Shown here: positions 13,719-16,700 of the stretch, in pieces
How positions within the stretch are numbered: position 1 is the stretch's first letter
Layout of the letters: each line of letters opens with the position of its first letter
Assembly (NCBI GenBank): GCA_000004985.1
Contig: GG738883.1
DNA length: 64,000 nt
DNA from: Naegleria gruberi
Lineage: Eukaryota
Direction: 5' to 3' (one strand)
Made by a program: the position numbers and the translations under genes
The notes under the pieces: generated by a model
Databases searched by the model: none
Seen by the model: only the letters and a program-made list of their open reading frames with translations
Told to the model about the DNA's origin: nothing

Positions 13719-16700
13719 ATGGCAGATTTTCAGAAGGCGTTTTATGCTGCGAGAGACGGCAAAATTGATGAATTTAATAATTATTTTAATGAACAAGATG
13801 TTAATAATAAATCACAGTATGGTCAAACCATGTTGTGGGTTGCTTGCTTCAACGGACATTTAGAAATTGTTAAATTATTATTATCATGTAAAACAATTGA
13901 TGTTAATTTGGGAGTAAGTATTTAATATTTAATGTAATTTTATATTTATAATATTAGAATGTAAGTATTTAATATTATTTTTATTTATATTTATAATATT
14001 AGAGAGTAAGTATTTTAATATTTAATTTTATTTATAATATTAGGATGTAAGTATTTAATATTTAATTTTATTTATATATTTAATATTAGTCACCATTATA
14101 CACTGCTTGCCAAAATGGACATTTAGAAATTGTTAAATTATTATTATCATGTAAAACAATTGATGTTAATTTGACTGTAAGTTTAATATTTAATGTAATT
14201 TTATATTTATAATATTAGGATGTAAGTATTTAATATTTAATATTATTTATATTTATAATAATAGTATGTAAGCATTTTAATATTTAATATTATTTATATT
14301 TATAATATTAGAGAGTAAGTATTTAATATTTAATTTAATTTTATACTTTTAATTAGGATGTAAGTTAAATATTAAATATTATTTATATTTATAATATTAG
14401 TATGTAAGTATTTTAATATTAATTTTATTTATATATATAATATTAGTCACCATTATACATTGCTTGCCGATATGGATATTTAGAAATTATTAAACAATTA
14501 CTTCAACATCCAAATATTGAAATAGATAGCACATTGTCAGTGAATGGAATTAATATTCAAACAATTAAAAGTAACATGGAAAAAGAACAACAACAAATAT
14601 TAAAAGAACAATTAGAACAAGAAGAGTTTAAACAACTAGAAGTGGAAAGATTAGAAAGAGACAGAATTAAAAAATTAGAAATGGAAAGATTAGAAAGAGA
14701 AAGAATTGAAAAGGAACATTTACTAAAAATAGAAAGAGAAAGATTAGAACGAAAAGAATTGGAGAAAAAACAACCATTCATAATCACATCTGAAACATTT
14801 TCAAAATTATGTTCACTCAACCAACAAATTGATAATAATAGAAGAAAAATTGAAAAACAATTTGAATCAATTCAATCATTTTTTTCTTCTATTCAAATTA
14901 AGAAAGAATTTGAAGATGAATATTTAACAATTTGTGATAATTTAAATAATTGTTGTAATTTAATTGACAAATTAACAAGTAATAATTATAATATTGAAAA
15001 TAACGAACATTTGTTAAATATTAATAATTTGATGAATAATATTAGAACTATATTGGAATTTATTAATAATCAAAAATACTTATTTAAATTACAATCTTAT
15101 TCAGAAGTATTAAAAGACAAATTACAATTATTTAATGAATTTAATTCTCAATTTATTAAACAAGAATTATTTGACAATATTGAAATGAGTGAACAATCTA
15201 TTAAGAATATAAAAAGTATTAATATAGTTCCAACTCATAATAAATTTAGAAATGAAACTAAAACAACATTACAACAAGTTACAAAACAATTATCAAATAT
15301 TGTTAACTCAATCAATAATTGTAATGAAATTGATTTGTCACAATTTTCAAATAATTTACAAAAAGCAATGGAATTATCAGAACAAGAAGAATTATATTTA
15401 AATAATATATTGTCAAATTGTAAAGTATTAATTTCAGACAATGATCAAATGAATATTTTACAATTATTTAATTTTTATCAAACACAAGAATTAAATTGTA
15501 AATTATTAATTCAAGAAACAATTCCATATATAATTGAAAAATATGAAATGTTACAAAATATTATAAATATTATGGATGATTATTCAAATTTATCAGAACA
15601 ATTTAAAACTATTCAAAGACAAAAAACAAAAATTACAAGAAATTTACATATTGTAAATCTAGATATTGAAGGATTAAAAGATGAATTGAAACATGTCAAT
15701 AATGACGATGAAATTAAAGATGAAATTCAAACTAAAGAAAAGAATTTAATTGAATTAAAATCTAATTTGAAGGAAAATATTCAAAAGTTAAATGAAATTA
15801 AAATGAAATTTCTTCAATTAAAAACAATTGGATTTGATATTAAATCAAACATGACAAGTGATTTATTATCTAATTTAAATATTAATGAAATGACACCTGA
15901 AATGTTTAAAGAAATTAAACCAATTCAAAATTGGAATGGAAATCATAATGTTTTTATTGGAATTGATTTAAATGATAAAAAACATATAATTAAACAATAT
16001 AATTTAAAAGATAAGAAATCAATTGAAGGTTTAGAAAAGGAATTGAAAATAACAAACAAATTAAAGCACGCAAATATTATTGAAATTGAAGGAATTTACA
16101 CTGAAGCTGATAACAAACACAGTACCACTAATGTATTTATTGTAATGCCATATTATTCAAATGGAAATTTGAAAGAATTTATTCAAACTAAAAGAAATCA
16201 TCAAAGTAATACTTTAAATTTATTATTTTGGGAAAGAACATGGAGACAATTATTAATTGGAATTCAACATGTACATTCCAGAGGTGTTATTCATTGTGAT
16301 ATAAAACCAGAGAATATATTTGTTGGTGATAAAGATGAATCAACAGAATATTATCCAATTATTTTAGGTGATTTTGATATTAGTTTAGATATAACAAGTA
16401 GAACAATGAATTTATTCACAAGAACAAGTGGAATTGCTGGTACATTAGATTATTTATCACCTGAACTAGTGAATGGAAAAACATCAGCAACATTTAGATC
16501 TGACATGTTTGCATTTGGTAAAACAATTCAAAATTGTATGACAGATCAAGAATTGAAACAATTCAAATCATTGAATAATTTATGTGAAGAGTGTTTGAAT
16601 TCAGATGTAAATTTGAGACCATTTGCATCTGATGCACTTGCAAATGAATTCTTTATGAAAGAAACATTATTAGATGAAGTTAAAATTCAGAAACATGTTC

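Follow-up and report, generated by a model that had tools for sequence, protein, structure and literature searches.

The 64-kb stretch of the Naegleria gruberi genome analyzed here (part of contig GG738883.1, referred to as the window) contains a gene for an ankyrin (ANK) repeat protein kinase that is interrupted by two arrays of short intron-like units, 38–44 nucleotides (nt) each, separated by exactly one codon. Judged from sequence, the units would be spliced out one by one, and the triplets between them would be kept in the mRNA as 3-nt exons, a reading to which a probability of about 0.62 is assigned. This unit-by-unit reading is favored because homologous genes carry arrays at the same codon, divergence is focused on the triplets, ANK profile scores improve when the triplets are translated, and a fungal gene family provides a parallel at the transcript level.

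Organization of the Arrays

The gene starts with the ATG at position 13719 on the plus strand and encodes three ANK repeats, a long coiled coil, and a protein kinase domain; both arrays lie at its 5′ end. Exon 1 (13719–13913, 195 nt, phase 0) encodes N-terminal helices and ANK repeat 1 and is followed by a run of four units (13914–14089). The middle exon (14090–14176, 87 nt, also phase 0) encodes ANK repeat 2 (SPLYTACQNGHLEIVKLLLSCKTIDVNLT) and is followed by a run of six (14177–14446). The reading frame resumes at 14447 in a large exon (14447–16888) that encodes ANK repeat 3 (SPLYIACRYGYLEII), the coiled coil, and the kinase domain, with the stop codon of the public gene model at 16886–16888. 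Each array, spanning 176 and 270 nt, respectively, occupies the loop between consecutive ANK repeats in phase 0, directly 5′ of an (S/T)PLY motif.

Array 1 consists of unit 1 (13914–13957, 44 nt, GTAAGT…TTAG), unit 2 (13961–14002, 42 nt), unit 3 (14006–14043, at 38 nt the shortest of the ten), and unit 4 (14047–14089, 43 nt). Between them lie the candidate micro-exons AAT (Asn, 13958–13960), AGA (Arg, 14003–14005), and GAT (Asp, 14044–14046). Array 2 consists of unit 5 (14177–14218, 42 nt), unit 6 (14222–14264, 43 nt, acceptor ATAG), unit 7 (14268–14311, 44 nt, donor GTAAGC), unit 8 (14315–14356, 42 nt, the most diverged), unit 9 (14360–14400, 41 nt), and unit 10 (14404–14446, 43 nt). Its candidate micro-exons are GAT (Asp, 14219–14221), TAT (Tyr, 14265–14267), AGA (Arg, 14312–14314), GAT (Asp, 14357–14359), and TAT (Tyr, 14401–14403). 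Thus, all eight spacers are 3 nt long, and the units begin with GTAAGT (9/10) or GTAAGC (1/10) and end with TTAG (9/10) or ATAG (1/10). Retention of any single unit introduces an in-frame stop (seven units) or a frameshift (three units). The junction motif AGNNNGTAAG occurs nine times in the window, where 3.6 copies are expected, and eight of these are in the arrays; apart from the remaining chance match, no units were found elsewhere in the 64 kb. Tandem Repeats Finder, applied to the window, reports periods of 46 and 263 nt in this region.

The ANK exon is itself duplicated, with 57 identical nt at 13854–13910 and 14117–14173. An earlier note on this DNA had located the first copy correctly but placed the second at 14120–14176. 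In other respects, the anatomy it described is borne out at the same coordinates: runs of four and six units, each with its own donor and acceptor, 3-nt spacers, phase-0 flanking exons, a duplicated ANK exon, tandem copies of codon plus mini-intron, and frame-neutral spacing.

Divergence Within the Arrays

When the exon-plus-array segments are aligned, array 2 equals array 1 with two insertions of 46–47 nt. Because the insertions end inside units, and because units 1 and 5 (95% identical) and units 4 and 10 are counterparts, copy number shifts in the manner of a minisatellite, with whole units gained or lost through slippage or unequal exchange. A mobile introner was considered and rejected as the source of the units, since the window holds no dispersed copies and the arrays differ by unit-sized tandem insertions or deletions. 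Terminal inverted repeats and target-site duplications were not seen at the array units.

The two arrays differ at 5 of 12 triplet positions, 7 of 164 positions in the intron units, and none of 57 in the adjacent exon tail (triplets versus introns, Fisher p=3.7e-4). Over all ten units, mean pairwise identity is 0.41 in the triplet columns versus 0.92 in the unit interior. The triplet preceding the first donor of each array, which is unquestionably coding, behaves like the spacers: the last codon of exon 1 is GGA and that of the middle exon is ACT, different at 3/3 positions. In control repeats, spacer and interior identities are 0.79–0.89 versus 0.85–0.92. The even divergence across the unit that characterizes a plain intronic minisatellite is therefore not what the arrays display. 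Unlike triplets beside units that are 92–98% alike fit diversifying or protein-level selection combined with concerted evolution, or homogenization confined to the introns.

The first alternative is that each array is one ordinary intron of 176 or 270 nt that happens to contain a tandem repeat, so that the triplets are absent from the mRNA and the ANK repeats have 29-residue periods. This explanation is rather unlikely, although several observations discussed below speak for it. It provides no reason why the spacer should be the most variable part of the unit, when ordinary repeats, including all the prokaryotic matches described below, conserve their spacers equally.

Arrays in Distant Homologues

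Exhaustive profile searches with the protein yielded a small family with a variable N-terminus, a helical region, a kinase domain, a coiled coil, and a PARP domain. When the non-ANK part was used in a profile search of a word-indexed protein collection, the N. gruberi protein itself was the sole match. Two family members with an ANK-type N-terminus, encoded on ENA metagenome contigs (L001, protein P0003; L122, protein P0124), were found via the protein and not via the DNA pattern. P0003 shares 31% identity with the window protein over 88% of its length. Its gene contains at least five tandem 42-nt units of the form gtaagtaa…gatag with the spacers TGG, CAA, CGA, and GTT; the contig begins inside the array, and the last unit abuts ACTCCATTGTAT (TPLY). 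The gene for P0124 contains at least three tandem 44-nt units with the spacers CTT and AGA, and the array abuts ACACCATTATAT (TPLY). The spacers are thus 3 nt long at 4/4 junctions in L001 and 2/2 in L122. Within each of these contigs, the units are 94–98% identical, and the triplets are unrelated (0.33 for triplets versus 0.94 for units in L001).

Comparison of the unit interiors among the three lineages (N. gruberi, L001, and L122) revealed no significant similarity, which rules out that the arrays of the three heterolobosean lineages are recognizably one sequence. Either the arrays were homogenized separately in each lineage, or they expanded independently in each. The position and phase of the intron, its tandem multiplicity, and the one-codon spacing persist while the intron sequence turns over. 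A neutral repeat within one intron would therefore hardly account for recurrence at one codon in three lineages. The ordinary-intron alternative likewise leaves unexplained why the spacers are 3 nt at 8/8, 4/4, and 2/2 junctions in three lineages with dissimilar units.

Upstream of its array, contig L122 (2590–2860) carries an inverted near-copy with a different ANK exon (TPLYVACKGGHVDIL) on the opposite strand. The inverted halves are joined via the palindromic core of a unit (…CAATATATTG…), and the unit abuts a TPLY exon in both orientations. This structure is either a chimeric assembly or two genes that share the same unit.

Ankyrin Loop Length

A canonical ANK repeat has 33 residues. The distances between successive GHLEIV motifs in the N. 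gruberi protein are 32 and 34 residues with the triplets and 29 and 29 without them. Keeping all triplets yields Pfam scores of 119.9 (Ank_2), 75.1 (Ank_4), and 69.5 bits (Ank_5), versus 108.7, 51.7, and 58.9 bits when all are skipped. Among ten isoforms scored, the skip-all form is the lowest, and Ank_2 and Ank_4 score best at near-full retention, with two or three loop-1 triplets and all five loop-2 triplets. AlphaFold2 predicts an ANK-like helical stack with paired helices for the keep-all N-terminus, with a predicted local distance difference test score (pLDDT) of 87.8. These values agree with the earlier proposal that N-R-D and D-Y-R-D-Y restore the length of the loops. The fit to ANK profiles thus favors triplet retention, though it mostly reflects spacing. 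For the ordinary-intron alternative, the evidence is divided: the protein that lacks all triplets is still ANK-like by its Ank_2 score, but its profile scores are the worst of the ten isoforms.

A Fungal Parallel

Arrays of the same layout are found in a family of small G-domain proteins that is expanded in ectomycorrhizal and litter-degrading Agaricomycetes. Three loci (L121, 2880–6040; L060, 7254–7931; and L071) contain 53-nt units with ideal fungal splice signals (GTAAGT…CTTAC…CAG) and 3-nt spacers. Within the gene, the array always occupies one site, on the coding strand between an exon ending in …(Y/W)FP(Q/H)IV and the exons of the C-terminal domain. Translation of the 56-nt repeat as a coding repeat is ruled out, since no open reading frame (ORF) of at least 80 codons crosses the array on either strand. 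Across the family, the units are 53–66 nt long, and the largest arrays exceed 50 units.

In Phlegmacium glaucopus (L123, found via the protein), about 45 units follow …YFPQIV (6960–9300), and a second array lies in a truncated paralogue (19711–22340). Spacing in L123 is 3 nt at 51 of 52 junctions and 6 nt at the other. Where a donor no longer reads GTAAGT, it still begins with GT or GC, and diverged, non-repeat introns at the edges are also exactly 3 nt apart. Suillus hirtellus (L124, 2710–4580) has 66-nt units at the same site, with an N gap in the contig. In Gymnopus androsaceus JB14 (ML769807.1, reverse-complemented as L128, 8387–12032), the array extends over 3.65 kb and has at least 56 junctions; 61-nt units and 3-nt spacers make up its 64-nt period, and its triplets read GFSGLLDLLLDDFDRDDF…. 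Public models of these genes end before the array (Gymnopus), skip it (Suillus, JGI), or are chimeric (Phlegmacium).

As in Naegleria, the spacers are the variable part of the repeat, with pairwise identities of 0.32–0.34 versus 0.74–0.88 for the interiors. The fungal triplets also avoid stop codons: none of 151 is a stop, versus 9.1 expected when bases are shuffled within codon positions (p about 5e-5; L121, L060, L071, L123, and L124 were counted, and L128 was excluded).

Three JGI contigs (L125, L126, and L127) carry an uninterrupted G-domain ORF at places where the genomic homologues have several introns. In all three, WFPH/Q is followed by a low-complexity linker with a monotone codon set (region 1200–1560 of L125). 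The linker codons of L125 are Leu CTT, Glu GAA, Arg AGA, and Asn AAT, and the G+C fraction at third codon positions is 0.11 in the linker versus 0.47 elsewhere in the ORF. L125 retains one 61-nt intron (1425–1485) at a codon boundary within the linker, and its removal yields a 503-residue ORF. This intron matches a genomic unit of Gymnopus androsaceus at 54 of 61 positions (89%), and residues 1–309 and 410–499 of the ORF map to either side of the Gymnopus array. Because it lacks introns, L125 is taken to be RNA-derived. The simplest reading is that it represents a transcript from a relative of Gymnopus in which all units but one were excised singly and about 90 one-codon exons were joined. The transcript-like contig and the genomic array appear to come from different species.

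The bearing of this family on the ordinary-intron alternative is twofold. The JGI model for Suillus takes the whole array as one intron, in line with that alternative, whereas L125 indicates that fungi do use the internal sites.

The recurrence of the layout also bears on whether the Naegleria arrays are an assembly artefact, a repeat expanded or collapsed during assembly. Tandem arrays do break assemblies elsewhere, as at the start of L001, the palindromic join in L122, and the N gap in L124. However, the Naegleria arrays are only 176 and 270 nt long, their units differ among themselves, the structure recurs in independent assemblies of other organisms, and the public record of the same genome has a gene model that spans the region. 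An artefact is therefore highly improbable.

Pattern Scans and Controls

JGI metagenomes were scanned with the pattern GTAAGT-N26-44-YAG-NNN-GTAAGT-N26-44-YAG-NNN-GTAAGT, which matched at least 120 loci. Among the matches listed, 94 are trivial (GTAA)n-type repeats and 27 have complex units, most of them ordinary minisatellites in which the spacer does not vary (such as GAT x5 or TCT x5). Within this set, the signature of the Naegleria arrays is found in only one fungal family (L060, L071, and L121) and possibly in L054. The idea that the pattern matches reveal a widespread phenomenon was accordingly rejected, given that most are (GTAA)n-like repeats or constant-spacer minisatellites. As a prokaryotic control, 596 gigabases of bacterial and archaeal genomes scanned with this pattern gave 98 loci, all of them ordinary constant-spacer repeats, including spacers of TAA, TAG, and TGA.

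The (GTAA)n-like loci (L008, L015, L016, L022, L081, L104, and about 90 more) are irrelevant to splicing and swamp naive pattern searches. Many presumably come from termite-gut metagenomes, judging only from contig-ID prefixes. Locus L054 contains, on the minus strand at about 1009–1250, GTAAGT…TAG units of 19–22 nt with spacers of 3 or 6 nt (agg, agt, tag, ttgtgg, tggtgg, cga, cat, and tta). This run may belong to the same class of arrays, from an organism whose introns are tiny, and the TAG triplet would fit a ciliate-type code.

Splice Signals, Intron Length, and the Public Gene Model

All ten units have a branch-like ATAAT or TTAAT 5–8 nt from the 3′ end, and they end in …TATAATATTAG or …TTTAATATTAG. 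The short ordinary introns in the window (44, 47, 53, and 58 nt) have the form GTAAGT or GTAAGC…(TTAAT/ATAAC)…YAG, with TTAAT or ATAAC 8–13 nt from the acceptor, a range drawn from only four or five introns. The 5′ splice sites of all ten units match the donors of these introns. A doubtful 31-nt candidate intron (GTAAGT…ATAG, phase 1) at 22660–22690 joins the ORFs at 21852–22766 and 22720–24312; if it is real, the minimal intron of this organism is shorter than the array units.

Longer introns also exist. A 236-nt intron candidate on the minus strand (40191–39956) joins the ORF at 40000–40572 to an LRR-RGS ORF at 36728–39880. It contains AT-rich tandem repeats ((TAT)n and TATTATTAAA), showing that long, repeat-bearing introns occur in the N. 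gruberi genome, where the mean intron length is 203 nt (PMC8296547). The earlier statement that introns are otherwise 41–58 nt is thus true only of the short class in the window. With this premise the argument from intron length for independent removal of each unit is weakened, since introns above 200 nt also occur. The proposal of independent removal itself is nonetheless favored by the other evidence. Introns above 200 nt, the repeats inside the 236-nt candidate, the lack of G at position −1 of the internal donors, and the very short length of some units all count toward the ordinary-intron alternative.

The public protein XP_002674588.1 translates all eight triplets, reading …IDVNLGNRDSPLY… and …IDVNLTDYRDYSPLY…, with the loops NLGNRDSPLY and NLTDYRDYSPLY. 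The exon structure with eight 3-nt exons has therefore been on public record since the genome release, apparently without ever being discussed. The same model treats 381 nt of the coiled coil (about 15216–15596, IKNIK/K/QFKT) as an intron, although this segment is in frame and free of stops; ab initio prediction probably produced this artefact. The model ends at 16888, whereas full-length relatives run on into a C-terminal PARP domain. RNA-seq data for N. gruberi exist (PRJEB23822; PMC6142364).

Several points weigh against unit-by-unit splicing in N. gruberi. Position −1 of the micro-exon donors is T or A, versus G in 4/5 ordinary donors in the window. At 38–44 nt, the units are at or under the length of the shortest clear ordinary intron (44 nt), and unit 3 has only 38 nt. 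In unit 8, very little sequence separates the branch-like TTTAAT from the acceptor. N. gruberi introns can exceed 200 nt, so the outer sites alone could feasibly serve to remove single introns of 176 and 270 nt. The public model, although it keeps the triplets, was built at least in part ab initio and is no evidence of splicing, because it also removes the stop-free 381-nt segment. No transcript-derived, near-identical protein was found in the protein search. The 14 heterolobosean triplets include no stops, but with p=0.26 this count is without statistical power. What the fungi offer is an analogy, drawn from a very remote lineage. Lastly, the kinase and PARP frames of the host gene are out of register, which could signal the onset of gene decay.

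Proposed Mechanism

On the favored unit-by-unit reading, each array would be a small minisatellite built from copies of a module in which a single codon is joined to a minimal GT-AG spliceosomal intron of about 42 nt. The spliceosome would pair each donor with the nearest acceptor and excise the units singly. Removal would probably be sequential, with adjacent units not processed at once, because two spliceosomes cannot fit 3 nt apart for steric reasons. The triplets would stay in the mRNA as 3-nt exons, adding N-R-D to the first loop and D-Y-R-D-Y to the second. Since the spacers are one codon long, pairing a donor with a later acceptor would only drop residues and leave the frame unchanged. 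The array would therefore tolerate sloppy pairing, and minor loop-length isoforms may result. Slippage or unequal exchange would gain or lose one unit, and hence one amino acid, per step. The triplets would be under protein-level selection, and the intron units would be kept alike within each species.

In a second alternative, the arrays are mainly a diversity generator, and stochastic or regulated pairing produces up to 8 x 32 = 256 in-frame isoforms of two ANK β-hairpin loops. Schistosome micro-exon genes are reported to generate protein variants through alternative splicing. These genes, the closest known analogue, use symmetric micro-exons (bioRxiv 10.1101/2023.06.21.545858). In the Naegleria arrays, all donor-acceptor combinations are in frame, the triplets differ from one another and lie in ANK loops, which are binding surfaces, and the triplets diverge while the units do not. 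On the other side, the fungal L125 represents essentially complete inclusion over about 90 codons with no mixed skipping seen, ANK profile scores prefer near-full inclusion, and the host is an intracellular kinase/PARP-type protein that has no obvious need for a repertoire. A primary role in diversification is, on balance, decidedly unlikely.

Host Gene and Genomic Context

The window has 30% G+C and densely packed long ORFs that encode, among other proteins, Hsp90, E2F/DP, and a PPR-DYW protein. In public records, the best match to the host protein is XP_002674588.1 (NAEGRDRAFT_70343, UniProt D2VN21), annotated as "predicted protein [Naegleria gruberi]." Inspection of its N-terminus (MADFQKAFYAARDG) did not reveal a signal-peptide-like hydrophobic stretch.

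An ORF for a PARP catalytic domain follows at 16885–17712 on the plus strand, in a frame that differs from that of the kinase ORF. This ORF probably belongs to the same gene as its C-terminal portion, because all full-length family members end in a PARP domain; the full-length relatives P0121, P0122, P0123, and P0141 have the kinase domain, coiled coil, and PARP domain on one polypeptide. The two frames are off by one base near 16830–16850, within an A/T-rich run, and a 1-nt change there joins them. The break is either an assembly indel or a recent frameshift. Apart from it, both ORFs are intact (784 and 275 codons for kinase and PARP, respectively).

This frame break counts toward a third alternative, namely that the gene is decaying or the repeat is a neutral minisatellite, and the arrays are recent slippage products without consequence. 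Their composition is also consistent with this, as they are AT-only, low-complexity DNA prone to slippage. However, 20/20 splice-site motifs are intact, no spacer has changed in length, and both ORFs are whole outside the break. The layout is also kept in two homologues at about 31% protein identity, and an assembly error could just as well explain the single frame break. Decay or neutrality is accordingly very improbable.

The upstream neighbor (10416–13040) encodes a TIG-ANK-CUE-PARP protein, so that two PARP genes with ANK repeats are adjacent. At 27125–29692, the minus strand encodes a PPR protein with an E motif and a C-terminal DYW deaminase domain. PPR-DYW proteins are plant-type RNA-editing factors and are recorded in Naegleria.

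Implications

Codon-intron minisatellites stand a somewhat better than even chance of being a general, undescribed route of gene evolution in short-intron eukaryotes, in which each residue gained adds 45–70 nt of DNA. If so, the N. gruberi ANK loops with three and five codons would be a small case, and the Agaricomycete linkers, with more than 50 units and about 90 codons in a transcript, an extreme one. An exon length of 3 nt is viewed as the hard limit at which splice sites can be recognized, and such exons are known almost only singly. Here, spliceosomes would process long series of them, and slippage alone could add dozens of introns to one gene. Such series would need ordered, one-at-a-time splicing and would offer a test bed for intron definition, U5-exon contacts, and exon-junction-complex deposition. 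For intron evolution, amplification of an intron together with a codon would be a simple source of new introns that is tied to a change in protein length. For protein evolution, ANK binding loops and low-complexity linkers could lengthen residue by residue, with mis-pairings kept in frame. Codon-intron arrays also matter for annotation, as they break gene models (Gymnopus, Suillus, and Phlegmacium among the models examined).

Comparison with Known Systems

The earlier note knew of no description of this architecture, and the literature searched yields none either, even though the exon structure stands in public annotation. No account of one-codon-exon/tandem-intron arrays was found, including in a 2026 review of non-canonical splicing (PMC13149111). 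Searches on tandem micro-exons, 3-nt exons, repeated introns, and Naegleria returned only snoRNA host genes, single micro-exons, RPS24, and schistosome micro-exon genes. The literature searched contained no series of consecutive one-codon exons between repeated introns, whether 3, 5, more than 50, or about 90 in a row.

Schistosoma micro-exon genes resemble the arrays in having serial, very short, symmetric exons of 3–81 base pairs (bp) in one gene (bioRxiv 10.1101/2023.06.21.545858). However, their exons are mostly 6–36 nt long, their introns are long (up to 5 kb) and unrelated, and their products are secreted. The arrays described here have one-codon exons, tandem-copy introns of 38–66 nt, and intracellular ANK-kinase or G-domain hosts. 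The Naegleria gene thus falls outside the schistosome class in the strict sense, having an N-terminus of a non-secreted type and 38–44-nt tandem-copy introns.

Isolated micro-exons of 1–3 nt in animals, plants, and fungi establish that the spliceosome can join a 3-nt exon. Long-read data from Coprinopsis cinerea back 27 such 3-nt exons as well as exons of 1–2 nt (PMC12230235), and human RPS24 has three consecutive micro-exons of 3, 18, and 22 bp (PMC12207440). Unlike the array triplets, isolated 1–3-nt micro-exons almost always occur once per gene, between unrelated introns.

Intron gain by tandem genomic duplication also produces copied splice signals and similar neighboring introns (PMC4974935, PMC3265369, PMC3443670). 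In the classical model, an exonic AGGT is duplicated to yield one intron, whereas here a whole intron plus a codon is amplified. Recursive splicing at ratchet points likewise involves stepwise removal through internal, juxtaposed acceptor-donor pairs. It operates in very long introns, with zero nt between AG and GT and nothing left in the mRNA. In the Naegleria arrays, 3 nt lie between TAG and GTAAG at 8/8 junctions and would be kept on the favored reading, and the segments are about 42 nt long.

Introners and introner-like elements are near-identical spliceosomal introns within a genome (PMC3609843), but they are mobile and dispersed in many genes, whereas the units here are, within the 64-kb window, strictly local and tandem. 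The W1/W2 repeats of Epstein-Barr virus EBNA-LP are also tandem units with their own exons and introns, and their number sets the length of the protein (PMC5834210). They differ in being viral, with a unit of about 3 kb and exons of 66 and 132 nt that are not codon-sized. What sets the arrays apart is the combination of one-codon exons, minimal tandem-copy introns, and minisatellite dynamics; each known system lacks the full set.

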